This document shows positions 4,818 to 27,773 of a DNA stretch of 27,775 nucleotides, one piece after another; within the stretch, counting starts at the first letter, position 1; every line of letters starts with the position of its first letter. The stretch is from an uncultured Heliobacteriaceae bacterium (GTDB lineage: Bacteria > Acidobacteriota > Blastocatellia > RBC074): the NCBI GenBank assembly GCA_964563495.1, contig CAZLYK010000070.1, positions 1 through 27,775 of the forward strand, written 5' to 3'. A model generated the notes under the pieces. It worked only from the letters and a program-made list of their open reading frames with translations, was not told the DNA's origin and made no database searches. The position numbers were made by a program, and so were the translations under genes.

Positions 4818-4883
4818 AATAGACAGGATTGACCGGATTTTGTCAGGATATGACCAGACACGATCCTGTTGATCCTGTCTATT
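4818..4883. repeat. Palindromic repeat element, copy A (AATAGACAGGATTGACCGGATTTT...GATCCTGTTGATCCTGTCTATT). It lies in the divergent msrP/rnhB promoter region.
   Basis: The terminal motifs AATAGACAGGAT and ATCCTGTCTATT are inverted. It belongs to the family also seen at ~8.0, 8.4, 11.4, 15.4, 17.6 and 22.7 kb. Confidence 0.7.
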
Positions 4884-5012
4884 GCCCACTTTGAATGCTG
4901 CAGAATCAAAATTTTATTCCAGGATTTCGGTGAAAGCTTCCTCATCTCAGCGCCCATCAAGTTATAATCAGCCGGCGTTTAAGAATACGATTTGACCATT
5001 AAAGTGGATTTC

Positions 5013-5663
5013 ATGCCATATCTGCTCAAGTTTGAAAAAGAGCTCTGGGGTGAAGGAGTAGCTCTGATCGCCGGGGTCGACGAAGCAGGTGTCGGGCCGT
5101 TGGCCGGGCCCGTCGTCGCCGGCGCGGTCATTCTCCCGCGCGAGTTCGGGCTGCGCGATCTGAACGATTCCAAGAAGCTGGGTCAAAAGACGCGCCGGGA
5201 TCTCTCCGTGGAGATCAAGACCGGAGCCTTGGCGTGGGCGGTTGGGATCGCCGAAGTCGAGGAGATCGACCGTCTCAATATTTATCGGGCCGGGTTGCTG
5301 GCTATGCGGCGCGCTGTCTGTGGATTGAGCCGGAGACCGGATTTTATCCTGGTCGATGCCCGGACCATCCCCGATTGTGAGATCGGGCAGAGAGGTATTA
5401 TCCGCGGAGACGAGCTTTCGGCGAGCATCGCCGCCGCTTCGATCATCGCCAAGACCACCAGGGATGCGATCATGGTCGAGCTCGACCGGGAATTTCCCGG
5501 CTATGGTTTTGCGTCGCACAAGGGATACGCGACGCCCGAGCATTTCCGCGCTTTACGGGAGCGCGGAGCGCTGCCGGTTCATCGACGAAGTTTCCGCCCG
5601 GTGCGCGAAGCCCTCGGGATTGAGCCGGTCCAGAACCCCTTGTTCAATAATTGCCATAAATGA
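5013..5663 (+). CDS. rnhB: Ribonuclease HII.
   Basis: It carries the [21 protein letters not shown] motif (RNase HII DEAGRGPL box). Later catalytic Asp/Ser blocks are also present. The six-frame ORF starts at a TTG at 4992. The ATG at 5013 (MPYLLKFE...) is the first ATG and I prefer it. Confidence 0.88.
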
Positions 5664-6883
5664 CAAATCAACAGGGCGTGGAGACCAGAGACGCGATCGG
5701 ATTTGTCTTGCGGATTGGCCGTGCGCTGCATGCTTACGGCTATCCCGCGGATCGTCTCGAAGAGGTCATGGAGAAGACCTCTGATCGACTGGGTCTTTTG
5801 GGACAGTTCTTTTCGACACCGACCTCGATCTTTGCGGCGTTCGGACCCCAGGACAATCAGCAGACCTTTTTACTTCGCGTCACCCCGGGTGAAGTTAATC
5901 TGGGCAAACTGGCTGAGCTGGACAGGGTCACGATCAACGTCCTGCGCGGCGTGCGAGACGCGGCTCAAGGGTCCGGGCAGGTCGAGCGGATACTGGCCGA
6001 GCCACTTCCCTATGGCCGCTGGCTGCGTGTGACGGCTTTTGGAATAGCGTCCGCCTGCTCTTCGCGTTTTCTGGGCGGAGGAATGATCGAAGTCTTCGTC
6101 TCCGCTCTGATTGGACTGCTGATCGGACTGCTCTCGATGGCAATCGAGAGATATCAATCGCTTGGCAGAGTCTTTGAACCGGTCGCCGCTTTCGCCGCCT
6201 CCGCGCTTGCTTCCGCTTTGAGCTTTGCCATCGGGCCTTATGCGGTTTCAAACGCCATGCTCTCCGGGTTGATCATACTCATGCCCGGGTTGACGCTGAC
6301 CGTCGCCATGATCGAGCTCTCGACGCAGCATCTATCATCGGGGACGTCGCGTTTGAACAACGCCTTTGTCACTTTCCTGGGGATCGGTTTTGGCGTGGCG
6401 GTCGGCAGCGCCCTGATCGATTCAATGCTTGGGTCGGCGCGCGCCGTCCGCGCCATCCCCTTGCCGGCCTGGACTGAGCTGCTCGCGATTGTCTCGCTCT
6501 CGCTGGCTCTGACGGTTCTGCTGCGCGCGCATTTGCGTGATGCCGTGTGGATCGTCCTGGCCGGAGCGCTGGCCGTCGGCAGCGCAAAAGTCGGAGCGAG
6601 GTTGCTGGGCCCGGAGCTTGGAGTCTTCTTCGGCGCGCTGACGGTCGGCGTTGGCGGAAATTGGTATGCTCGGCTGGTTGACCGCCCGTCGATTATTACC
6701 CAGGTCCCTGGAATCCTCATGCTCGTCCCGGGCAGCGTGGGATTTCGCGGGCTCGCGGCCATGCTCGACGAAAAGATCATCTCGGGCATCGATACGACTT
6801 TCAAAATGATCCTCACGGCTGTCGCTCTGGTCGCCGGGACGCTGATCGCCAGCATCATCGCTCCGACACGGCGTGAGATATAA
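5660..6883 (+). CDS. Threonine/serine exporter (ThrE) family membrane protein, a fused YjjP-like (DUF1212) plus YjjB-like (DUF3815) arrangement.
   Basis: 407 aa. An N-terminal soluble region ([24 protein letters not shown]) is followed by about 10 TM segments. The start ATG overlaps the rnhB stop (ATGA). Confidence 0.75.
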
Positions 6884-6890
6884 TTTATTG

Positions 6891-6922
6891 AAGATCCCCG
6901 CCGCTTGCGGCGGCGATCTTTG
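6891..6922 (+). terminator. Candidate intrinsic terminator hairpin (GATCCCCGCCGC/GCGGCGGCGATC stem plus a short TTT) after the rnhB-thrE pair.
   Basis: A GC-rich inverted repeat lies 8 nt after the stop at 6883. The following U-tract is short, so confidence is modest. Confidence 0.35.
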
Positions 6923-6936
6923 TCACAAGGAGAACA

Positions 6937-7944
6937 ATGACTTCCAGAATCAATCATCAGTGGCGACTGGCGTCGCGCCCGGTCGGCTTTCTCAAGGAGT
7001 CGGATTTTAAGTGGGTCGAAGAACCAACGCCCGATTTGAAGGAGAATCAGATTCTCGTCCGCAGCCTCTATCTGTCACTGGATCCGGCAAACCGGGGGTG
7101 GACGAATGAGGGCGGATCCTACCGCGACGAGATCCCACTGGGCGCCGTCATGGAAGGTGGGGCGGTCGGAGTAGTCGAAGAATCGCGGAATCCTAATTTT
7201 ACACCGGGCGACAACGTCCAGGGGATGTTTGGCTGGCAGGAATACGTCGTCTCCGAGGGAAAGGGAATCAATAAGTTGCCGAACATTCCCGGCTTGCCTT
7301 TGACCGCCTACCTGGGGCTTTTCGGCCACATCGGATTAACCGCATATTTCGGCCTGCTCGACCTCACCCAGCCGAAACCAGGCGAAACTCTGGTCGTCTC
7401 GGCCGCCGCGGGGGCAGTCGGATCGATCGTCGGTCAGATCGGCAAGCTCAAAGGCTGTCGCGTCGTCGGCATCGCGGGCAGTGACGAAAAATGCAAATGG
7501 ATCACCGACGAGCTGGGCTTCGACGCGGCGATCAATTACAAAAAAGAGAATATCCGTGAGGCTCTCAAAAAGGCCTGTCCCCAAGGCATCGACATCTATT
7601 TTGAGAATGTCGGCGGCGAGACGCTGGATGCCGTGCTGAGTATGATCAATCTGTTCGCCCGGATCAGCGTCTGCGGGATGATCTCTATCTACAACGCGAC
7701 CAAGCCCGTCCCCGGCCCCTACAACCTGATCAACATCCTGACCAAACGCGCAAAGATGCAGGGCTTCATCGTGACCGACTTCTTGCCGCGCTCACAAGAA
7801 GCGGTGGCCGACCTGACCAAGTGGTACACGGAAGGCAAGCTCAAATATCGTGTCGATGTCGTCGAGGGGCTGAAGCACGCGCCGAGTGCGCTCAACAAGC
7901 TCTTCGAAGGGTCGAACCACGGCAAGCTGATCATCAAGATCTGA
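6937..7944 (+). CDS. NADP-dependent oxidoreductase of the medium-chain dehydrogenase/reductase family (CurA/YncB, alkenal/one reductase-like).
   Basis: 335 aa. The RBS AAGGAGA lies 5 nt upstream of the ATG. There is a Rossmann motif AAAGAVGSIVGQIGKLKGCRVVGIAGS and MDR N-terminal GroES-like blocks (ENQILVRSLYLSLDP). Confidence 0.88.
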   Translation: MTSRINHQWRLASRPVGFLKESDFKWVEEPTPDLKENQILVRSLYLSLDPANRGWTNEGGSYRDEIPLGAVMEGGAVGVVEESRNPNFTPGDNVQGMFGWQEYVVSEGKGINKLPNIPGLPLTAYLGLFGHIGLTAYFGLLDLTQPKPGETLVVSAAAGAVGSIVGQIGKLKGCRVVGIAGSDEKCKWITDELGFDAAINYKKENIREALKKACPQGIDIYFENVGGETLDAVLSMINLFARISVCGMISIYNATKPVPGPYNLINILTKRAKMQGFIVTDFLPRSQEAVADLTKWYTEGKLKYRVDVVEGLKHAPSALNKLFEGSNHGKLIIKI

Positions 7945-7986
7945 TCGAAATAAACAAGACTATCGGGATTGAAGACAATCACAAAA

Positions 7987-8008
7987 ATCCTGTTTAATCC
8001 TGTCTATT
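7987..8008. repeat. Half copy (right arm only, ATCCTGTTTAATCCTGTCTATT) of the palindromic repeat family. It lies between the oxidoreductase and the SCP2 gene.
   Basis: It matches the right-arm consensus ATCCTG...AATCCTGTCTATT. No left arm is present. Confidence 0.55.
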
Positions 8009-8031
8009 CAAATTTTACGGAGAAAGACCGA

Positions 8032-8349
8032 ATGACTGAACCGGCAAAAGACCTGACAGTTGATGAGTTCACCACCGGGATGCGCGAGAAGATCGGCGAA
8101 AATTCCCGGCTCGACGCGACCTTCAAATTTGTCTTCGATGACGGCCGAACTATTTTTATCGATGGTAAAACAGTGCCCAACCGCGTGAGTAACGATGATC
8201 AGCCGGCTGAGGTGACGCTCAGGATGTCGATCGAGACGCTCAACAAACTCCATCGCAAGGAGCTCAATCCAACCATGGCCGTCATGCTCGGCAAGATCAA
8301 GCTGGAAGGGAATATGATGACAGCGCTGAAGCTCGATCAGATTTTTTAG
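8032..8349 (+). CDS. SCP2 (sterol carrier protein 2) domain protein, ~105 aa.
   Basis: The C-terminal blocks LNKLHRKELNPTMAVMLGKIKLEGNMMTALKL are typical of SCP2. GGAG lies 9 nt upstream of the ATG at 8032. The upstream TTG-initiated extension to 7969 would read through the repeat half-copy, so I reject it. GC is lower (~52%) than in neighbouring genes. Confidence 0.75.
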   Translation: MTEPAKDLTVDEFTTGMREKIGENSRLDATFKFVFDDGRTIFIDGKTVPNRVSNDDQPAEVTLRMSIETLNKLHRKELNPTMAVMLGKIKLEGNMMTALKLDQIF

Positions 8350-8352
8350 GCG

Positions 8353-8424
8353 ATTGACGGGATTTTCTCAGGACTTGACCGGATGGGGTCTGGTCAAATC
8401 CTGAGAAAATCCCGTCACTCCCGT

Positions 8425-8430
<6 letters not shown>
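8353..8430. repeat. Palindromic repeat element, copy C, a variant (GACGGGATTTTCTCAGGACTTGACCGG ... CTGGTCAAATCCTGAGAAAATCCCGTC ... CCCGTCTATTT). It lies between the convergent SCP2 and M2-peptidase genes. The peptidase stop codon TAG sits in its terminal AAATAGACGGG motif.
   Basis: The inverted-repeat arms are ~27 nt. The terminal GTCTATT motif is shared with the family. Confidence 0.6.
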
Positions 8431-10260
<1,830 letters not shown>

Positions 10261-10369
10261 AGACATTATCCTCATGGGAAAAATGAAAATCCGGGTAAAT
10301 CTGCGTGCGATCATGGCTTGAATGGTTCAAAATGGCGACAGTCGAAGTTGAGACTCAGTAAGAGATTAT

Positions 10370-10603
10370 ATGCACAGCAGTACAAGACGCGAACTTCTCA
10401 CCGGCCTCCAATATCTCCTCATTGGCATCATTGCGCAATGCTCGGTTGTGCAATGGTTTGGAGGCAAGGACTTTTCCGTGCAACTACTGGTCTGGACGGC
10501 CGTCTTCACGGGGCTCGGTCTGGTCAGGCTGATCATCCTGTTTCTATCAGACCAATTCCGGCGAGATCAATGGCAGACGATCTCCAGGCGCAAGTGGTAT
10601 TAA
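10370..10603 (+). CDS. Possible small two-TM membrane protein, 77 aa, hypothetical.
   Basis: It sits in a 285-bp gap between two minus-strand genes. It has two hydrophobic helices. The RBS is weak (AAGAGA) and codon usage is mixed. Its stop overlaps the SDR gene's 3' end. Only weakly supported. Confidence 0.3.
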   Translation: MHSSTRRELLTGLQYLLIGIIAQCSVVQWFGGKDFSVQLLVWTAVFTGLGLVRLIILFLSDQFRRDQWQTISRRKWY

Positions 10604-11364
10604 ATCATCATCTGGCCGCCGTTGATTTCGATCATCTCGCCGTGGATGTAGCTGGCGGCGTCCGAGGCCAGGAAGGCGATGACTCTGCCGACCTCTTCCG
10701 AAACGCCGGCCCGGCCCAGGGGGATGCTGGCGGCGAATTGGGCCATCAATTCCGGGGTCGAAAGCCTTTCGTGGAAGGGGGTCTCGATGACGCCGGGGGC
10801 GACGCCGTTGACCCGGATGCCGCGATGCGCCAGCTCTTTGGCCATCCCTTTGGTCAGGCACATGACGGCCGCCTTGGCAGCGGCGTAAACGGCGGCGCCC
10901 GGGCCGCCTCCGTGATGGCCCGCGATCGAACCGACATTGATGATGTTCCCCCGGCCGCGATCCATCATTTCAGGCATGACCGCTTGTGAGCAGAGCAGGA
11001 CACTCTTGAAATTGAGCGTCACGACGCGGTCCCACAACTCGTCGGTGAAATCGAGCAGGGGGCAGCGCTGGATCATGTCGCCGGCATTATTGACGAGGAT
11101 GTCGATCGGCCCCAGTTTTTTGCGCGCCTCTTCCATGAGCGCGTGAGCGCCGGGGCGGGTCGAGACGTCGGCCTGGATAACTATTGCTCGACCGCCGTGC
11201 GATTCGATCAGGTGGCCGGTCTCTTCCGCTCCTTCACGGTTGCGATGGTAGTTGAGTGCCACCGCGGCTCCGCATTCGGCCAGGGCCGCCGCCGTGGCGC
11301 TCCCAATCCCGCTGCTCGCGCCGGTAACGACCGCGATCCGCCCGCTCAAATCCTGTTTGTTCAT
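10600..11364 (-). CDS. SDR-family oxidoreductase (3-oxoacyl-ACP reductase / glucose dehydrogenase-like short-chain dehydrogenase).
   Basis: It has the TGASSGIG cofactor motif after MNKQDLSGRIAVV, the NNAG motif, and the catalytic S...YAAAK (YxxxK). I set the start at the ATG at 11364. The six-frame ORF extends further upstream to 11595, through the repeat. Confidence 0.9.
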   Translation of the reverse strand: MNKQDLSGRIAVVTGASSGIGSATAAALAECGAAVALNYHRNREGAEETGHLIESHGGRAIVIQADVSTRPGAHALMEEARKKLGPIDILVNNAGDMIQRCPLLDFTDELWDRVVTLNFKSVLLCSQAVMPEMMDRGRGNIINVGSIAGHHGGGPGAAVYAAAKAAVMCLTKGMAKELAHRGIRVNGVAPGVIETPFHERLSTPELMAQFAASIPLGRAGVSEEVGRVIAFLASDAASYIHGEMIEINGGQMMI

Positions 11365-11392
11365 TTCCTGCTTCCCTTTGATGTTGACATTT

Positions 11393-11479
11393 AATGGACA
11401 GGATTGACGAGATTTTTGCAGGATTCGACAAGATAATATCCTGTCAAATCCTGCACAAATCTCGTCAATCCTGTCTATT
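11393..11479. repeat. Palindromic repeat element, copy D, full nested form (AATGGACAGGATTGACGAGATTTTTGCAGGATTCGACAAG-ATAAT-ATCCTGTCAAATCCTGCACAAATCTCGTCAATCCTGTCTATT). It lies between the nagA 3' end and the SDR start. The nagA stop codon TGA is inside its right arm.
   Basis: The inverted arms are ~38 nt, with about 3 mismatches. The nagA C-terminus ...RNRQD* is read from AAT AGA CAG GAT TGA of the element. Confidence 0.75.
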
Positions 11480-12643
11480 TCTCCGATAAGCGATTTGTCC
11501 GTCGACGATCGTCGCCTCGATTTCGAGGCTGGTCGTTTGATCGTCCCAATCAAACAAGACCAGATCTGCGCTGAATCCCGGGGCGATCGATCCATATTTG
11601 TCGCTCAAACCGAGAATCCGGGCCGGATTGCCGCTCGCCATCTGCAGTGCGTCATCGAGTGTCGCATCGGAAAAGGCGACGGTCTTGGCGACGGCTTCCT
11701 GCATCTCGAGGGCCGAACCAGCGAGATAAGGGGTGCCGGGCAGGCAGACTCTGCGCGTGGGGGTGAGTTCGACCTCGACCGCACCCAGCCGGTAACGCCC
11801 TGATGGGCGTCCCGCTGCGGCGATCGCGTCGGTCACCAGAATAGTGCGACCCGGCGTCTTGCAGCGGAGAAAGCATTTGACCACAGATGGCGGCAGATGA
11901 TGGCCGTCGACGATCAGGCTCGCCCATAGATCGTCGGTGGCCAGTTGTTCCCAGATGTAATTGGGGTGCCGGTCGATCCTGGCGTGCGAGCCGTTGCCCA
12001 GGTGAGTCGACAATTTCGCCCCGGCCCGAACAGCATCGGCAATCTGTTGGGGGCTCGCCGCGGTATGACCGATCGCCGCAATCACTCCCGCCTCGACTAG
12101 ACGCTCGATCAAGCCGGTTGCCTCTGGCCATTCCGGCGACAGGGTAACGATTCCGATCTTTCCGCGGGCTGTCTCCTGCCAGCGCCGAAACCGATCCCAA
12201 TCCGGCGGGCTCACGTGTTCGCGAGGATGCGCTCCGCGCGGCCCGTCTTCGGGCGAGATAAACGGGCCTTCCAGATGTATGCCCGGATGCGAGCGGGCAA
12301 CTTCCGTCGATTGCTCGGCCGCGCGCACGAGATTCGAGATGCATTTATCTATCTGTTCCGTTGAGCCGGTGATGATCGTCGGGCAGAAGGCAGTCACTCC
12401 GGTTCGCTTCAACGCGCGCGTCGCCGCTTCGATCTCTTCGACGGTTGTCTCGGGGAAGTTGAAATCCACTCCGTTGTAGCCGTTGATCTGGAGGTCGATC
12501 CAGCCCGGCGCGATGCGCAGGCTCGGGTCGCCGAGGTCGCAGCGTACCGATCGATCAGCGGGTCGCTGATCCGTGATCAGCCCGTCGACCATGGTCAGAT
12601 CCACAACCGTATTCCCGGCTCCGATCCTGCCTCTGATCTTCAT
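11465..12643 (-). CDS. nagA: N-acetylglucosamine-6-phosphate deacetylase family amidohydrolase (NagA-like).
   Basis: Blocks align to E. coli NagA: GWIDLQINGYNGVDFN (GFIDVQLNGCGGVQFN), IHLEGPFI (LHLEGPWL), STHLGNG and LVTDAIAAAG (LVTDATAPAG). The start ATG directly abuts the stop of the upstream small ORF (TGAATG). Confidence 0.85.
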   Translation of the reverse strand: MKIRGRIGAGNTVVDLTMVDGLITDQRPADRSVRCDLGDPSLRIAPGWIDLQINGYNGVDFNFPETTVEEIEAATRALKRTGVTAFCPTIITGSTEQIDKCISNLVRAAEQSTEVARSHPGIHLEGPFISPEDGPRGAHPREHVSPPDWDRFRRWQETARGKIGIVTLSPEWPEATGLIERLVEAGVIAAIGHTAASPQQIADAVRAGAKLSTHLGNGSHARIDRHPNYIWEQLATDDLWASLIVDGHHLPPSVVKCFLRCKTPGRTILVTDAIAAAGRPSGRYRLGAVEVELTPTRRVCLPGTPYLAGSALEMQEAVAKTVAFSDATLDDALQMASGNPARILGLSDKYGSIAPGFSADLVLFDWDDQTTSLEIEATIVDGQIAYRRNRQD

Positions 12644-12883
12644 TCAGGCTCCGATCCTGGTTATCCAATAACCCAAAGCAAGCAACAGGGCGACCCACAG
12701 CCAGGCCAGCAGGAAGCCGATGACATCCAGCCGGTAGTGACGATAGCTGAACTTGCCGGGCAATCTGAGCAGGTCCACAATCATGAGCGAATGACCCTCC
12801 TCCTCCAATCGGGAGTGGGGAATCGGTGGGACGATATCGGAGATGGATTCGGTCTCGACGCCGGTTGTCCGGTTTTGAACCAT
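12644..12883 (-). CDS. Small membrane protein (79 aa, C-terminal TM helix), hypothetical. It is translationally coupled between the symporter and nagA.
   Basis: GAGAGG lies 5 nt upstream of the ATG at 12883. It starts 9 nt after the symporter stop, and its stop abuts the nagA ATG. The C-terminal helix is VIGFLLAWLWVALLLALGYWI. It resembles the small accessory subunits often paired with SSS transporters, but I cannot confirm the family. Confidence 0.5.
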   Translation of the reverse strand: MVQNRTTGVETESISDIVPPIPHSRLEEEGHSLMIVDLLRLPGKFSYRHYRLDVIGFLLAWLWVALLLALGYWITRIGA

Positions 12884-12892
12884 GGGTGCCTC

Positions 12893-14370
<1,478 letters not shown>

Positions 14371-14374
<4 letters not shown>

Positions 14375-15351
14375 TGTTCAGATCCTCGCTTGACCGCAAT
14401 CAGAGAGATGCAAACCAGCGGCGGGTTCGCTCCCGTCCGGTCCGCTTTGGGAAAAGGTTGAACGGTTGTCCGTGTCGGTGGCGGAGTCGGAAAAAAGGTC
14501 GCGTATTTTTCGTTCATGAGCTTGAACTCGGCCATATCGTCGAGGTAAACATTGACGGCGACCGTCTCCGACAGACTCGCACCGTGGCTTTCCAGTCTGG
14601 CTTGCAGCTTTTGCATGACCGCCGTCAACTGATCTTCGACGTTTGCGGCAGTTGTCTCCGACTCGAGATTGCAGAAGACAATCCCGTCCGGCGGATCCGC
14701 TCTCGAAGCGATGGCCGAGAGACAGGCCGCCTTCTCTCCGGGCAGCGCACTGACCGGAATCATGGCCGAGATGTCCGTCCCGTAATCGTTGCGAAAGACG
14801 ACCCGGCTTTGATCGAGGCCCAACTCGGCGAGCGCGCGCATCAAATTATCGTTCGCTTCCGACCGATCCTGACCATAGACGCCGGAGAGGAAGACGCGAC
14901 CGCCGGCTTCGACTGCCGAGCTGGCGTGACCTGCCGGCCGCAGGCTGCTCAGGTTGATCGTTTTCTTGAGGCTCAGGTCGCGGATGGCCAGAGCCGTCAT
15001 CTCGACGTTGGTCTCTCCAGGCATTCTGGCCACCCCGATAACCACGCGAGCCGGTGGAGCCTGACCGAAGTAGCCGGCATAGACGCGATCGACCGGACCC
15101 AGATCACTGATCTTTTCCAGATAAAGCTGCAGATGGACGATATGCTCAAGCGTCAAACCCGCGGCTTCGACGATCGCCTTGACGTTCTTCAGGCATCGGT
15201 CGGCCTGGGCGGCGAGCCCTTCGGGAATTTTGCCCTCCGCGTCGCGCACGCCCTGTCCGGAGAGATAGAGGTAATCGCCAACCAGCAGACCAGGGCTGTA
15301 CGGACCGGCGGGCCTGGCGCCGTCGGCGGGAACAATCGGTTTGCGTTTCAT
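14371..15351 (-). CDS. Tandem RidA/YjgF (Rid family) domain protein, with two endoribonuclease-L-PSP-like domains.
   Basis: There are two ~130-aa units, each with YjgF-like blocks: GPYSPGLLVGDYLYLSGQ...VHLQLYL and a second GGRVFLSGVYG...NVYLDDM. I prefer the ATG at 15351 (MKRKPIV). The six-frame start at 15387 is a TTG inside a repeat copy. Confidence 0.8.
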
Positions 15352-15358
15352 CTTGATT

Positions 15359-15404
15359 AATAGACAGGATCGACAAGATTTCTGCAAGATTGAACGATAG
15401 GATC
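15359..15404. repeat. Partial (left-arm) copy of the palindromic repeat family (AATAGACAGGATCGACAAGATTTCTGCAAGATTGAACGATAGGATC). It lies immediately upstream of the RidA gene start.
   Basis: It matches the left arm of copies D and F at about 80%. The right arm is degenerate or absent. Confidence 0.55.
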
Positions 15405-15437
15405 TCCGGTCAAGGCTATATAAATCCTATTAATCGT

Positions 15438-15642
15438 CCTCACGTCAGGACACTTTTCTTGGCGTAGGGGAAACTAGCCGGGAAATTTAACCGCCAAGAA
15501 GCCAAGATCGCCAAGTCAACCAAGCAAAGAATGGTCATTTTAGTTGGGCCAATGGTCCGACCCCGGACCTCCTTGGCGTCTTTGCTGCTTGGCGGCTTGG
15601 CGATTTTTATACCTTAAGCATGTAAACTGTCCCGACGTGAGG
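15438..15642. mobile_element. MITE-like 205-bp element with 15-nt terminal inverted repeats (CCTCACGTCAGGACA / TGTCCCGACGTGAGG). It is flanked by AATCGT direct repeats. Inside is a long imperfect hairpin built from CCAAG/CTTGG repeats.
   Basis: The TIRs match 14/15. AATCGT is at 15432-15437 and again at 15645-15650. The interior pairs CGCCAAGAAGCCAAGATCGCCAAGTCAACCAAGCAAAG with CTTTGCTGCTTGGCGGCTTGGCG. It lies in the 5' leader of the S15 hydrolase gene, so a structured 5'-UTR RNA is an alternative reading. Confidence 0.4.
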
Positions 15643-15680
15643 TCAATCGTCTCTATTATCTTTGCATCGAGGTGACAACC

Positions 15681-17534
<1,854 letters not shown>

Positions 17535-17549
<15 letters not shown>

Positions 17550-17620
17550 CAGGATTGATGCAGGATTTGACAAGAAAGGTCTTGTCAAATCCTGCATCAA
17601 TCTTGTCGATCCTGTCTATT
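17535..17620. repeat. Palindromic repeat element, copy F, the best-preserved full nested form (AATAGACAGGATTGACAGGATTGATGCAGGATTTGACAAG-AAAGGT-CTTGTCAAATCCTGCATCAATCTTGTCGATCCTGTCTATT). It lies between the convergent S15 hydrolase and MFS genes.
   Basis: The arms are 40 nt with 2 mismatches. It contains the S15 hydrolase stop codon. The MFS gene stop is 4 nt beyond the other end. Confidence 0.8.
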
Positions 17621-17623
17621 AAT

Positions 17624-18919
<1,296 letters not shown>

Positions 18920-18990
18920 GACGCCTCCGTCTGGTTGTCATGCTGATTGAATGGTCTGCCGATGAAAAGCCCGCGTAGGATAATGCAGGC

Positions 18991-19020
18991 TTGACAACTT
19001 GGTCAAACCGTTCAGATAAT
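18991..19020 (+). promoter_or_regulatory. Candidate sigma70-like promoter (TTGACA, 18 nt, GATAAT) in the divergent MFS/TonB-receptor intergenic region. It overlaps a degenerate relic of the repeat's inner palindrome (TGCAGGCTTGACAACTTGGTCAAACC).
   Basis: It has hexamers with good consensus matches. Its orientation is toward the TonB receptor gene at 19306, giving a ~280-nt leader. Acidobacterial promoters are poorly defined, so confidence is low. Confidence 0.3.
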
Positions 19021-19305
19021 GCGCATCGTCGGCGTAATCAATCGATCCACCATGAATCAAGCCGGCGTGAGTGAGCCGGCATAAATGAGCTGGTCATATC
19101 CTTCGATCAGTCTCGCCGGCGTTGCTGGGACCGTAGCTAACCTGGACTTTCTTCAAACAATCGGCAATTGATAGAGCAATTCGCGTGGCCACACGAACTA
19201 GAATACCCAGAGGTTTGTGCCCGTCCGATTTGTTTATCGGCGCAGATTTGAGATCTGTGTTTTCAACAACCGACCGCGATTTCAGCAATTTCAGGAGGAT
19301 AACAT

Positions 19306-22300
19306 ATGAGTCCGAAACTCAGCTCAGAAAGCATGATTCGCCGGATGATATGCATGACCGGGGTGCTGCTGGTTCTGCTCGTCGTGACGCAGGCGGCGCA
19401 GGGGCAGGTGCTCTACGGTTCGCTCACCGGCAACGTGGTTGATAAAAATGGCGCGGTCGTCGCCGGCGCCACCGTTACGATCACAAACCAACAGACCGGC
19501 CAGTCGCGAGAAGGCGTGACCGACGTCAACGGCAGCTATGATTTCCCGACGGTCCAGGCCGGCACCTATACGATCAAAATCAGCAAGCAGGGTTTCAAAT
19601 CGGTGACCAAGGAGAATATCGCGGTCACGCTCAACACCGTCACGCGCGCCGATATTTCAGTCGAAGTCGGGCAGGTCAGCGAGACGGTGGTTATCACCGC
19701 CGAAGCCGCGCAGCTCAAGACCGACCGTGCGGAGGTCAGTGCCGAGCTGACCAGCCGCCCGCTCCGAGACCTGCCGGTCCCGCTCGGGCGCAACTACCAG
19801 AACCTCTTCAAGACGCTCCCCGGTTTTACTCCTCCGGAAGACGCGCATTCGGTTCCCTCGAATCCATCGCGTTCGCTGGTCTTCAATGTCAATGGCGCCA
19901 GCCGCTCGTCGAACAACACCCGGATTGACGGGATCAGTTCGACCAACATCTGGCTGCCGCACGTCACGGCATACGTGCCGGCGCTCGAAGCGATCGAGAC
20001 GGTCAATGTCGTCAGCAACAGCTTCGACGCCGAGCAGGGGTTGGCCGGCGGCGCGGCGATCAACGTCCAGATCAAGAGCGGAACCAATGAATTTCACGGC
20101 TCCGCGTTCGAATACCATTCCAATCAGGTGCTCAAGGCGAGAGATTATTTCCGTCCTCCGCAAAACGCCAAGGGCAAGTTCATCCAGAACCAGTACGGTG
20201 GAACGCTCGGCGGCCCGATCATGAAGAACAGGCTCTTCTTCTTCGGGAGCTACGAGGGAACCAAGAACCGTCAGAACGACAGCCGCATCGAGTCCGTCCC
20301 GACGGCGGCGATCCGGACCGGCGATTTCCGCGGGACAAACACCAACATCTACGATCCGTTGACCGGCAACGTGAACGGCACCGGCCGTACGATCATCAGC
20401 TGCAACGGCGTCCAGAATGTGATCTGCGCCGACCGGATCAGCCCGGCCATCAAAAAGATTCTGCCGCTCATCCCGCTGCCCAATCTGCCGGGCGAAGTCA
20501 ACAACTATTTTGCCTCGGCGGGTTTTCTCTTTGACCGCTGGACGATCGACAGCAAGGTCAACTGGAACGTCAACAGCAAGCTCAACATCTGGGGGCGCTA
20601 CAGCGTCCTCGACTTCTACACAGTCAATGAGACGGTCTTCGGCAAAGAGTTGCAGGGGCGCGCAATCAACAGCTCGAACCCCGGGACGGGACAGGGCAAG
20701 ACGCACAGCTTCTCCTTCGCCGGCGTCTATACCTTCACGCCGAGCTTCATCGTCGACGCAAATTTCGGGCTCTTCCGCCAGAACACGGACGTCGCGCAAT
20801 CCGACATCGCAGAGAAGCGGGGTCTGGATTTCCTGGGCATTCCGGGAACCAACGGGAGCCAGCCGTTTGAGGGTGGCTTCCCGTTTTTCGATCTGAGCAC
20901 GTATTCAGATTATGGGACGGTTGATACTTTCATGCCATACACGCGCCGGGACGATCAGTATCAGATCGTGGCTAACGCCAACTGGCTGAGGGGGGCGCAC
21001 AACATCCGCTTCGGCATGGATACTTATCGGCAGAAGCTGAACCACACACAGCCCGAATCGAGTGATACCAGCTTCGGCGCGCGCGGCGGCTTCCAGTTTA
21101 CCAACGGAGTGACTGCCCTTAGCGGTGGGGCGAATGGAAATCAGTACAATGGCTTCGCGGGGTTCCTTCTCGGACTGCCTTCGCGGATTGGTAAACTGAC
21201 GTTGACCGAGGCTCCATTCAGCACCCGCAACTGGCAGTACAGCTTTTACGGGCGCGATCAGTGGCAGGTCAACAAGAGCCTGACCTTCTCCTTCGGCACG
21301 CGCTGGGAATACTTCCCGGTTCCGACGCGCGCCGACCGCGGTCTCGAACGCTACAACGTCAATACCAACATGATGGAGATCGGCGGCGTCGGTTCGGTGC
21401 CGATGGACCTCGGCGTCGAGGTGAGCAAGCGCATGTTCGCCCCACGCATCGGTCTGGCCTACCGCATCACTTCGTCGTTTGTCGTCCGCGCCGGATACGG
21501 GTTGACCAACGATCCGTACGCGCTGGCGCGTCCGCTCCGGACCAATCACCCGGTCCTGCTCAACCTCAACAACGATGCGGTCAATGGGTTCCAGTATGTC
21601 AGCCGGCTGGAGCAGGGCATTCCGGTGGCCACTGCGCCCAGCCTGGGGAATGGGATCATCTCGATCCCGAGCAACGTCTCGGCGATCACGCTGCCCGACA
21701 AGTTCCAGCGCGGATACGTCCAATCGTGGAACCTCTCTCTCCAAAAGGAACTGAAGTGGGGCTTCACCGGTGAGATCGCCTATATCGGGACACGGCAGGT
21801 CAAGCAGATCGGCTTCGCGGAACTCAACTACGCCAACATCAACGGCGGCAACAATGGCCGTCAGCTCGTCCAGAAGTTCGGGCGCACCGCGACGACCCTC
21901 CTGGTGACGCCGATCGGCAACAGCCATTACGATGGAATGCAGGCCCGTCTCGATCGCCGGTTCAAGGACTTCTACCAGCTCGGCGTCAACTATACCTGGT
22001 CCAAGTCGATCACCACCTCGGGAGCTAACAACAGCGATGATAGTCTGCGGGTCAACATTCCGCAGTACTACTATCTCAATCGTTCGCTCAGCAGTTTCGA
22101 CCGCCCGCACAACCTGCAGATCACCAACCTGACCGAGCTCCCGTTCGGCAACGGACGGAAGTACTTGAATGGCAAGGGCGTGCTCTCGGCGGTTGTCGGA
22201 GGCTGGCAGGTCAACAACATCATCAGCCGGTTCAGCGGCGTGCCGTTCACCGTCACCTCGTCGGGAAGCACACTCAACGCACCGGGCAACAGCCAGACCG

Positions 22301-22662
22301 TAGACCTGATCAAGTCCAGTGTGGCCATCTTCGGCAACAACGGACCAGGGCAGAAATATTTCGATATCGACGCCTTCCGCGCCGTCGGGGCGGATCCTAA
22401 TACGGCCAACCGTGTCCGCTTCGGCACTGCCGGGTACAACATACTGCGCGGCCCGTCACGATTCCAGTGGGATTTCGGTCTCTTCCGGCAGTTCCGGGTG
22501 ACCGAGAGGTTCAATCTTCAGTTCCGCGCTGAAGGATTCAACTTCACCAATACCCCGCAATGGGGCAATCCGAACAGCAACCGCGACAGCTCCAGCTTCG
22601 GAGAGAATACCACCGTCAGCGGTGAACGAATTTTCCGATTCGGCCTGAGACTCGGTTTCTAA
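19306..22662 (+). CDS. TonB-dependent outer-membrane receptor, Oar-like, with an N-terminal carboxypeptidase-regulatory-like domain (1118 aa).
   Basis: AGGAGG lies 7 nt upstream of the ATG. There is a signal peptide. The CarbopepD_reg-like block is VVDKNGAVVAGATVTITNQQTGQSREGVTDVNGSYDFPTVQAGTYTIKISKQGF. A plug region (NVNGASRSSNNTRIDGIS) follows, then a long beta-barrel ending ...RFGLRLGF with a C-terminal Phe. Confidence 0.9.
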   Translation: MSPKLSSESMIRRMICMTGVLLVLLVVTQAAQGQVLYGSLTGNVVDKNGAVVAGATVTITNQQTGQSREGVTDVNGSYDFPTVQAGTYTIKISKQGFKSVTKENIAVTLNTVTRADISVEVGQVSETVVITAEAAQLKTDRAEVSAELTSRPLRDLPVPLGRNYQNLFKTLPGFTPPEDAHSVPSNPSRSLVFNVNGASRSSNNTRIDGISSTNIWLPHVTAYVPALEAIETVNVVSNSFDAEQGLAGGAAINVQIKSGTNEFHGSAFEYHSNQVLKARDYFRPPQNAKGKFIQNQYGGTLGGPIMKNRLFFFGSYEGTKNRQNDSRIESVPTAAIRTGDFRGTNTNIYDPLTGNVNGTGRTIISCNGVQNVICADRISPAIKKILPLIPLPNLPGEVNNYFASAGFLFDRWTIDSKVNWNVNSKLNIWGRYSVLDFYTVNETVFGKELQGRAINSSNPGTGQGKTHSFSFAGVYTFTPSFIVDANFGLFRQNTDVAQSDIAEKRGLDFLGIPGTNGSQPFEGGFPFFDLSTYSDYGTVDTFMPYTRRDDQYQIVANANWLRGAHNIRFGMDTYRQKLNHTQPESSDTSFGARGGFQFTNGVTALSGGANGNQYNGFAGFLLGLPSRIGKLTLTEAPFSTRNWQYSFYGRDQWQVNKSLTFSFGTRWEYFPVPTRADRGLERYNVNTNMMEIGGVGSVPMDLGVEVSKRMFAPRIGLAYRITSSFVVRAGYGLTNDPYALARPLRTNHPVLLNLNNDAVNGFQYVSRLEQGIPVATAPSLGNGIISIPSNVSAITLPDKFQRGYVQSWNLSLQKELKWGFTGEIAYIGTRQVKQIGFAELNYANINGGNNGRQLVQKFGRTATTLLVTPIGNSHYDGMQARLDRRFKDFYQLGVNYTWSKSITTSGANNSDDSLRVNIPQYYYLNRSLSSFDRPHNLQITNLTELPFGNGRKYLNGKGVLSAVVGGWQVNNIISRFSGVPFTVTSSGSTLNAPGNSQTVDLIKSSVAIFGNNGPGQKYFDIDAFRAVGADPNTANRVRFGTAGYNILRGPSRFQWDFGLFRQFRVTERFNLQFRAEGFNFTNTPQWGNPNSNRDSSSFGENTTVSGERIFRFGLRLGF

Positions 22663-22667
22663 CCCGG

Positions 22668-22716
22668 AAAATAGACAGGATTGACAAGATTTTTTTCTTG
22701 TCAATCCTGTCTATTT
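22668..22716. repeat. Palindromic repeat element, copy G, a short form (AATAGACAGGATTGACAAG-ATTTTTTT-CTTGTCAATCCTGTCTATT). It lies 5 nt after the first TonB receptor stop.
   Basis: It has perfect 19-nt inverted arms with an 8-nt loop that is A/T-only. It could act as a 3' hairpin or terminator, since the loop/flank is T-rich on the plus strand (GTCTATTTAAAT). Confidence 0.8.
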
Positions 22717-27723: not shown

Positions 27724-27773
27724 GCGGTTTTCAGTTTCGTGCGTCCTGTCAGACGCACGAAACTGAAAACCGC
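27724..27773 (+). terminator. Perfect 22-bp-stem hairpin (GCGGTTTTCAGTTTCGTGCGTC-CTGTCA-GACGCACGAAACTGAAAACCGC) 10 nt after the last gene. It is a candidate terminator or 3' stabiliser. The flanking sequence is cut off by the window end.
   Basis: The arms are an exact reverse complement. No U-tract is visible because the window ends at 27775. Confidence 0.4.

Follow-up and report, generated by a model that had tools for sequence, protein, structure and literature searches.

Palindromic repeats at gene boundaries of a Blastocatellia contig and their probable kinship with GxxExxY gene cassettes

The stretch of DNA analyzed here, contig CAZLYK010000070.1 of assembly GCA_964563495.1 (positions 1 to 27,775, referred to in its whole length as the window), stems from an uncultured bacterium of the Blastocatellia (Acidobacteriota). 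The closest relatives of its M2 peptidase are 82-84% identical and bear the names Acidobacteriota, Blastocatellia or Blastocatellales, and according to Pfam the window genes are ordinary housekeeping and transport genes. At the boundaries of these genes lie seven copies, A to G, of a short palindromic repeat, which the original prediction had taken for a family similar to repetitive extragenic palindromic (REP) sequences or to MITEs (miniature transposable elements with inverted repeats). Arms of the same design enclose, in other bacteria, a gene for a GxxExxY protein, and it is the relation between these gene-carrying cassettes and the gene-less repeats of the window that is considered here.

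Census, anatomy and gene context of the window repeats

When the 27,775 bases were scanned with the terminus pattern AATAGACAGGATTGAC, allowing up to 3 mismatches, 13 matches were detected, whereas dinucleotide-preserving shuffles gave an expectation of 0.12 and at most 2 matches in any one shuffle. A separate repeat search returned identical direct and inverted families, and by these two approaches the predicted repeats are borne out at the coordinates listed below. The window contains 5 intact hairpins (A, C, D, F, G), 1 decayed copy (B) and 1 split copy (E). Folding energies were obtained with RNA energy parameters and are given with the z value of each copy.

Copy A, 4818-4883: intact hairpin, each arm with about 3 units (-36.6 kcal/mol, z -8.5), in the divergent region between an msrP-like gene (minus strand) and rnhB (plus strand), its end lying 19 nt upstream of the ATG (4798) of the msrP-like gene
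Copy B, 7949-8008 (left end approximate): decayed whole copy with a well-kept right arm at 7987-8008 (z -1.3), following the ADH stop and preceding the SCP2 start of co-directional genes
Copy C, 8343/8353-8430: intact, diverged hairpin with units ACGGGAT/TCAGGAC (-55.3 kcal/mol, z -9.3), between SCP2 and M2 peptidase genes that converge on it and whose stops (SCP2 TAG at 8347-8349, M2 peptidase TAG at 8427-8425) both lie within its termini and are both the TAG of AATAG
Copy D, 11393-11479: intact hairpin with 4 units per arm (-57.9 kcal/mol, z -13.7), overlapping the amidohydrolase stop (TGA at 11467-11465) and 28 nt upstream of the SDR start; co-directional genes
Copy E, 15359-15404: left arm only, 3 units, no fold on its own (z +0.1), in a divergent region and starting 7 nt from the candidate ATG at 15351 of a RidA-like gene
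Right-terminus relic GTCAATCGTCTCTATT, 15642-15657: 14/16 match to the consensus, possible other end of copy E
Copy F, 17535-17620: near-perfect hairpin with 41-nt arms that are 95% complementary, 4 units per arm (-71.5 kcal/mol, z -16.7), between S15 peptidase and MFS genes that run towards each other; S15 peptidase stop (TGA at 17547-17549) inside the element
Copy G, 22668-22716: perfect hairpin of minimal size, 21 nt and 2 units per arm, with loop TTTTTT (-34.6 kcal/mol, z -10.9), beginning 5 nt past the first outer-membrane barrel gene's stop; co-directional genes

Each arm consists of 2-4 tandem units of 9-12 nt, which are variants of (T/A)TGACAGGAT, and the opposite arm is the mirror of the first. 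The copies begin and end with the fully paired termini AAT(A/G)GACAGGAT … ATCCTGTC(T/C)ATT. Element sizes range from 46 to 88 bp, with arms of 21-43 nt whose inverted complementarity in the repeat search is 80-100%, stems of 20-41 bp, and palindromes that run right up to loops of 1-6 nt. A nested inner palindrome had been proposed for the longer copies; no separate one was found, the arms being runs of tandem units that are mirrored as a whole. Folding, which had been suggested as a check, gives very stable long hairpins for A, C, D, F and G, and B and E do not fold. As to the half and degenerate copies that had been suspected, B turned out to be a whole copy in decay, with a degenerate left arm (AATAAACAAGACTATCGGGATTGA) that is 68% like the terminus, and E is a left arm accompanied by the relic at 15642-15657. 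Because the left arm at 15359 has this possible counterpart to its right, E and the relic may be the two ends of a 299-bp element with a filled interior. The outer 17 pairs hardly vary among the elements, and in the inner arms left-right complementarity averages 0.76 within an element against 0.65 between elements, which is too small a difference for covariation to serve as an argument for structural selection.

The view that all copies are intergenic and sit mostly at 3' ends stands for C and F between convergent genes and for B, D and G between co-directional ones, but not for A and E in divergent 5' regions, nor in its strict sense, as four flanking genes terminate within element termini. 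In this manner the elements reshape the ends of housekeeping genes, and the amidohydrolase and the S15 peptidase both end in …N-R-Q-D-stop, read through AATAGACAGGATTGA.

A role as terminator, which had also been proposed, is unsupported in the canonical sense: T-tracts are missing from all copies, and the 20 terminator-like sites that an intrinsic-terminator scan detects in the window, a number equal to the shuffle expectation, include none of them. Other readings of the sequence were discarded as well. An outward sigma-70 promoter in the termini of A and E (TTGCAG/CTGACA – 17 nt – TCTATT) would have a poor -10 element, and a promoter scan showed no enrichment. The RNA motif CAGGAU resembles the repeats of CsrB, and a CsrA-sponge reading was dropped because the opposite arm pairs with every GGA. 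PhoB-type and DnaA-box readings of the units were ruled out on spacing, copy number and positions.

A search of the window against Rfam (E up to 1) gave no match at gathering score, two sub-threshold matches to microRNA hairpins on copy D being chance matches, and no ribosomal RNA (rRNA). In the searchable literature, the arm strings led to no paper describing these sequences, and publications on REP sequences, MITEs and the intervening sequences of 23S rRNA supplied background only. It thus holds that the repeats match no named family, as far as Rfam and the description of REP sequences (PMC3733652) go, ERIC, Correia and RUP lying outside this comparison.

GxxExxY cassettes with arms of the CAGGAT type

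Among the loci compared with the window (numbered with L), L052 from Blastocatellia and L033 from Anaerolineales have their arms 420-500 bp apart with a small open reading frame (ORF) in between, and L026 retains the ORF between its arms as a decayed remnant, which indicates a cassette decaying by internal deletion. The enclosed ORF encodes a GxxExxY protein (TIGR04256, E 3e-38; Pfam PF13366, PDDEXK_3), and at all loci with a gene between CAGGAT-type arms this gene is GxxExxY. In the Blastocatellia cassettes L052, L086 and L089 the left side reads AAT(A/G)GACAGGATT(G/T)ACAGGATTTTCAGGA, followed by a ribosome-binding site and the GxxExxY ORF, and the right side reads ATCCTGA(A/G)AAATCCTGT(C/A)AATCCTGTC(T/C)ATT. 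The cassette of L086 (AATGGACAGGATTTACATGATTTTCAGGAT – ATG…TGA – TCCTGAAAATCCTGTCAATCCTGTCCATT) is located between yceI and an aldehyde dehydrogenase gene, and that of L089 (AATAGACAGGATTGACAGGATTTTCAGGAG – ORF – ATCCTGAGAAATCCTGTAAATCCTGTCTATT) has a Ser/Thr kinase gene on one side and an FHA gene on the other. In window copies A, C, D, F and G, the terminus AAT(A/G)GACAGGAT and the 2-4 CAGGAT-type units, mirrored, correspond to the arms of these three cassettes, and over its first 22 nt copy F is identical to the left arm of L089. Forward arms are in all cases rich in purines, reverse arms in pyrimidines. At the level of sequence, the window hairpins and the GxxExxY cassette arms thus share one design, and the window copies correspond to gene-less forms like that at L183/L184.

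Presence and absence of these forms were compared at the junction of the kinase and FHA genes over Blastocatellia contigs, which the identities of the flanking genes group as ((L089, L182), L052, (L183, L185)), with L187 and L188 outside.

L089: filled, with arms and GxxExxY gene
L182, sister of L089: empty, the spacer being clean and 28 nt long
L052: filled
L183/L184: hairpin of CAGGAT-type units that lacks the gene
L185/L186, sister of L183: empty
L187 and L188, outgroups: empty

Gene-less and gene-filled forms therefore occupy one and the same spacer of 20-30 nt, and sister lineages differ in presence or absence, which implies that one spot was hit by insertion more than once or that elements were lost cleanly. 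As empty, gene-less and filled states are all found at one orthologous junction, it is evident that the elements are gained and lost at orthologous sites.

The GxxExxY family comprises 18,146 clusters at 50% identity, and distant members are found within the same architecture made of other units. On viral contigs these are CACGGAT, ACCGGATGA, AACGGAATA, AAATGAAAC and CGCAGAAA, and in cultured organisms CACAGAGA (Bernardetia), ACGCGAAG (Sphingomonas parapaucimobilis), GACTGAAG (Gemmatirosa) and CACGGATTCG (Treponema). A GxxExxY protein from Anaerolineales with CAGGAT-type arms is 63% identical to one from Blastocatellia, and CAGGAT-armed proteins in general share at least 60% identity even between phyla, whereas those from viral contigs or plasmids with other units reach 36-51%; some CAGGAT-tailed representatives drop to about 51%, so that the identity boundary is fuzzy. 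From these identities, unit type appears to track protein lineage, if only roughly. Comparison of arms and proteins also indicates that the arm design travels with the GxxExxY gene between phyla.

Several layouts depart from a gene between two inverted arms. In L093 (9700-10450) and in L177, L179 and L180 (about 1330-2000), one or more complete hairpins are followed by the gene and an extra reverse arm, so that either reverse arm could serve as pairing partner of the forward arm; the upstream hairpin of L093, about 143 nt long, is tandemly duplicated. On a plasmid of Fusobacteria bacterium ZRK30 (L191, 270-890), the GxxExxY gene lies between direct repeats of about 50 nt, AATC(A/G)GTGAAAAT…CAGATTTAATCCGTGTACCTAT, and not between inverted arms. 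In the cultured strain of S. parapaucimobilis (L195, 371-799), a cassette with ACGCGAAG units is inserted between fabD and fabG of the core operon for fatty-acid synthesis and is possibly a useful experimental system.

Arms are frequently translated as parts of proteins. Tails encoded by arms, in all three frames, were detected in most of the 120 nearest GxxExxY homologues and in many of 150 diverse cluster representatives, the reverse arm giving peptides such as …ILKNPVNPV-stop, ILSK and SCQSC and the forward arm DRITGFSGFTG and QDLQD (QDxQD). Low-complexity tails of this kind (NPVNPV, ILSK, DRITGFSG) are present in many GxxExxY entries (P0141, P0146, P0168, P0201, P0202, P0242), and in P0168, P0202 and P0242 they run on, probably into the next gene. 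Gene callers translate arms also in the absence of a gene, as in the 39-aa ORF called on the gene-less hairpin L183/L184 (2372-2491). The arms hence explain a recurrent annotation artefact, the NPVNPV or QDLQD low-complexity tails and the tiny ORFs called on arms.

For the GxxExxY protein, an AlphaFold2 (AF2) model was obtained with a predicted local distance difference test score (pLDDT) of 94, and residues D66, E76 and K78 show little or no variation, so that a nuclease with PD-(D/E)XK fold is plausible. No sequence match was found among solved structures, and membership in a known defence or phage family was not found, the protein being absent from PHROGs and showing no more than weak similarity to Cas4 in PADLOC. 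A survey of PD-(D/E)XK proteins lists the function of PDDEXK_3 as 'unknown' and reports multiple transfers between divisions (PMC3424549), and a search of the literature for GxxExxY, PDDEXK_3, TIGR04256 and PF13366 returned nothing on flanking repeats.

Species-representative genomes were scanned once with a 16-mer, a scan that lists stretches and not copy numbers per genome and in which over half of the 85 stretches listed are chance singletons. At least about 16 of the 85 belong to Blastocatellia or other Acidobacteriota, several contigs being hit in some metagenome-assembled genomes (MAGs), and four contigs (L016, L030, L044, L051) end within an element. After extension, the common design AATAGACAGGATTGACAGGATTT(T/A)CAGGAT … ATCCTG(A/T)AAATCCTGTCAATCCTGTC is recognized also in Anaerolineae and Chloroflexia (Chloroflexota), Planctomycetota, Lewinellaceae (Bacteroidota), beta- and gammaproteobacterial MAGs, Sumerlaeota, and a Heliomicrobium MAG. 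The family is thus not confined to the few copies of the window, since multiple genomes, and more than one contig per MAG, are among the matches listed; it had been seen as a local family and in fact spans many phyla, and the proposal of a dispersed, decaying palindromic family rather than a protein-binding operator is supported. In a Lewinellaceae MAG (L020, 1-850) at least 16 copies of a 49-50-nt repeat are arranged head to tail, each with two ATCCTGT-type units and then a C-rich tract (…ACCTGTCCATCCTGTTCATCCTGTCCCCCCAAAGCGCCTTGCCCCCAAA…).

Density differs strongly between genomes. Searching with a model of the arms detected 11 arms in the 27.8-kb window, and in about 0.9 Mb of related Acidobacteria contigs, picked blind to the repeat, a single complete element (L125) together with a single partial arm (L152). 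The two closest relatives (82-84% identity), of which 40 kb were searched, gave no elements, and other Blastocatellia contigs with cassettes have no free hairpins in 20 kb. The dense gene-less expansion in this genome is therefore an unusual, lineage-specific burst.

Origin of the repeats and rival explanations

The repeats of the window are probably gene-less, MITE- or REPIN-like members of a family of palindromic cassettes that in its full form carries a GxxExxY gene. Such elements would be selfish DNA, non-autonomous and mobile at the DNA level. For their mobilization, the action in trans of the GxxExxY nuclease, with the unit arrays as its recognition sites, is the most plausible mechanism, although we propose it tentatively. 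The elements would sit in short spacers and at gene 3' ends; 2 of the 3 frames entering a terminus meet TAG or TGA within 15 nt, and transcribed stems of 20-41 bp would form double-stranded RNA that walls the insert off from host messages; the stems could also act as a 3'-end hairpin or as an RNase III site. A broader proposal is more doubtful, namely that GxxExxY proteins might be the nucleases of an unrecognized class of hairpin-bounded mobile cassettes in many phyla, with gene-less palindromes as their non-autonomous offspring. This would be a parallel to the REPINs and their REP-associated tyrosine transposases (RAYTs), but with a PD-(D/E)XK enzyme. If true, it would assign a concrete, testable role to the very large orphan family GxxExxY/PDDEXK_3 and place a second gene-plus-hairpin system alongside RAYT/REPIN. 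Small palindromic mobile repeats are already known; in comparison with Rfam and the searchable literature, the tandem-unit arms, the spread across phyla and the link to GxxExxY are new.

Several observations weigh against a descent of the window repeats from GxxExxY cassettes. An hmmsearch (--max) of the six-frame translation of the window revealed no GxxExxY gene or remnant, and the perfect short-loop palindromes show no trace of a deleted ORF. At the junctions of L089/L182 and L183/L185 no clear target-site duplication or footprint was recognized, the flanks being diverged and a 2-nt TA being indistinguishable from the palindromic end. Neither the extra reverse arm in L093, L177, L179 and L180 nor the direct-repeat layout of L191 is predicted by the simple picture of a transposon with terminal inverted repeats (TIRs). 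In addition, the arm architecture may not depend on GxxExxY at all, because a similar arrangement is seen at an unrelated small gene in L086 (11990-12563): the gene (12042-12563) encodes a 23S_rRNA_IVP protein (PF05635, four-helix-bundle), a tandem array of a different 9-nt unit (GAGATTGAAGATTGGAGATTGGAGATTGGAGG) lies upstream of it, and complementary units (…TCTCAAATCTCAAATCTCAAATTTGAAATC…) lie inside the called ORF. Finally, we know of no GxxExxY protein with a known activity.

Some of these points are accommodated by the main rival, in which the palindromes form an independent REP-like family and the GxxExxY protein, similar to a homing endonuclease, cuts their centre and has its gene copied into the loop, so that gene-less hairpins are unoccupied targets and not derivatives. 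The position of the gene exactly between both arms in the Blastocatellia cassettes fits this model, as do a spacer that holds a gene-less hairpin or a filled cassette depending on the lineage, window hairpins that are palindromic up to loops of 1-6 nt and free of ORF debris, the large paralogous families of GxxExxY genes, and the similar layout around the unrelated four-helix-bundle gene. We consider it unlikely, however, since unit type roughly tracks protein lineage and the gene is accompanied by CAGGAT arms across phyla, which fits arms that are part of the transferred unit, and since filled cassettes occur without free hairpins in 20 kb of other Blastocatellia contigs, the arms, at 25-40 bp, are short for homing by recombination, and the cassette of L026 decays by internal deletion. 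If instead the hairpins were kept by the host for a role in RNA, as 3' stabilizer, as factor-dependent or bidirectional terminator or as RNase III site, with their repetitiveness being secondary, their extreme stability and the positions of C and F between convergent genes and of D, G and B just past stops would be expected. A hairpin is also present in all relatives examined at the convergent M2|SCP2 junction, the site of copy C, and as each relative carries a different one, it is the presence of a hairpin and not its sequence that is conserved there. Yet T-tracts are missing and the terminator scan found nothing at the copies, A and E are in divergent 5' regions without transcript ends, B and E are decaying, and sister lineages have clean empty sites; host function alone, which we regard as improbable, moreover fails to explain a 16-nt terminus common to several phyla and its tie to one gene family.

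A REP or TIR family moved by an IS200-like tyrosine transposase (RAYT/TIRYT) encoded elsewhere in the genome would account for the REPIN-like appearance of the elements, and both TIRYT genes and associated TIR families are known from Acidobacteria (PMC3733652). Like REPINs, the elements are short hairpin-forming inverted doublets, dispersed intergenically, with an abundance that differs sharply between related genomes, and in both systems an inverted repeat flanks one small gene; no clear target-site duplication was recognized here, and none is seen for REPINs. REP sequences, however, have a GTAG (or CGTC) tag, unpaired, at one end and stems of 5-13 bp (PMC3733652), whereas the window elements are tagless, with stems of 20-41 bp and arms of tandem 9-12-nt units. 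No RAYT partner of the kind suggested was detected: the window ORFs include no Y1 transposase, and the gene between CAGGAT-type arms is at every such locus one for a GxxExxY nuclease of the PD-(D/E)XK type and not of the HUH/Y1 type; GxxExxY is furthermore multi-copy, and the arm design crosses phyla. On these grounds a RAYT-driven family is very improbable. Hardly credible are arrays of operators, in which a transcription factor would bind ACAGGAT or CTGTCA direct repeats about one helical turn apart: the unit period of 9-12 bp and the location of A and E next to start codons in divergent promoter regions agree with it, but 7 sites in 28 kb flank unrelated housekeeping genes, including convergent 3' ends, unit numbers vary, copies are decayed, sister sites are empty, and the scan for promoter-like sequences gave no enrichment.

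Related systems and other palindromes

With bacterial MITEs (Correia/NEMIS, RUP and Nezha, compared by features), the elements of the window have in common that they are small, with 46-90 bp, non-coding, bounded by terminal inverted repeats, locally abundant and decaying, that they insert at gene boundaries and can alter C-termini, and that a longer, gene-carrying relative exists. This relative, however, is not an insertion sequence (IS) with a recognized transposase as known for the parents of MITEs, but carries only the PD-(D/E)XK protein of 125-145 aa; no clear target-site duplication was found, and the whole element is one palindrome of sub-repeats.

The intervening sequences (IVS) of 23S rRNA, with an S23p/four-helix-bundle ORF, are considered to be horizontally acquired selfish elements whose stem is cut by RNase III (PMC4990558). 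They too consist of a small ORF of unknown function within long complementary, stem-forming termini, and it is a gene of the 23S_rRNA_IVP family that has the analogous unit array in L086. Unlike these insertions into helix 25 or 45, the elements described here are at or between protein-coding genes, their ORF belongs to another family and gene-less copies dominate the window, in which no rRNA was detected and all neighbours are protein-coding.

The BOX elements of pneumococci are intergenic and modular, their internal tandem modules vary in number, and they have a strong potential for secondary structure. The window elements are likewise modular, variable in module number and structured, whereas sequence and module sizes are unrelated, and BOX is neither a simple palindrome of mirrored units nor known to be associated with a gene.

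At the orthologous M2|SCP2 junction, the hairpins of L189 (about 9965-10000) and L190 (about 11840-11880) are ordinary GC hairpins. Tandem-unit palindromes, in several cases with units of 9-10 nt, are found there in the following contigs.

L095, 3245-3330: units GGGAGAG
L097, 2978-3075: units GGGACAAGG
L100, about 2540-2740: tandem-unit palindrome
L096, 11862-11945, and L098, 2138-2214: units CACAAAG/CACGAAG

Sites of this type are either hot spots for palindromic insertion or resident terminator hairpins that have been repeatedly overwritten, and terminator positions between convergent genes would in this way be re-occupied again and again by differing palindromes.

Palindromes of other types are present in the window as well. 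Between half-copy E and its possible right end, at 15487-15620, lies a palindrome with a second unit type, GCCAAG, which has the left arm CCGCCAAGAAGCCAAGATCGCCAAGTCAACCAAGCAAAGA, a loop of about 50 nt and the right arm CCTTGGCGTCTTTGCTGCTTGGCGGCTTGGCG and folds with -49.9 kcal/mol (z -3.6). Tandem AGCACCC units occur at 84-110. A perfect palindrome without relation to the CAGGAT family lies at either contig end, at 1-30 (AGCCAGGGGTGGAGC|GCTCCACCCCTGGCT) and at 27724-27773 (22-nt arms, GCGGTTTTCAGTTTCGTGCGTC), and the assembly probably broke at both ends in these other multi-copy palindromes. Related Blastocatellia contigs are rich in further families of intergenic palindromes (such as ACAGTACCGCGCGCG…, TGTACCGTAGGTTGTCCAACCTGCGG… and arms of CACAGAG units), which were located at these positions.

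L096: 7925-8050, 12282-12349 and 16180-16294
L095: 219-288 and 3666-3733
L098: 2554-2660 and 4253-4308

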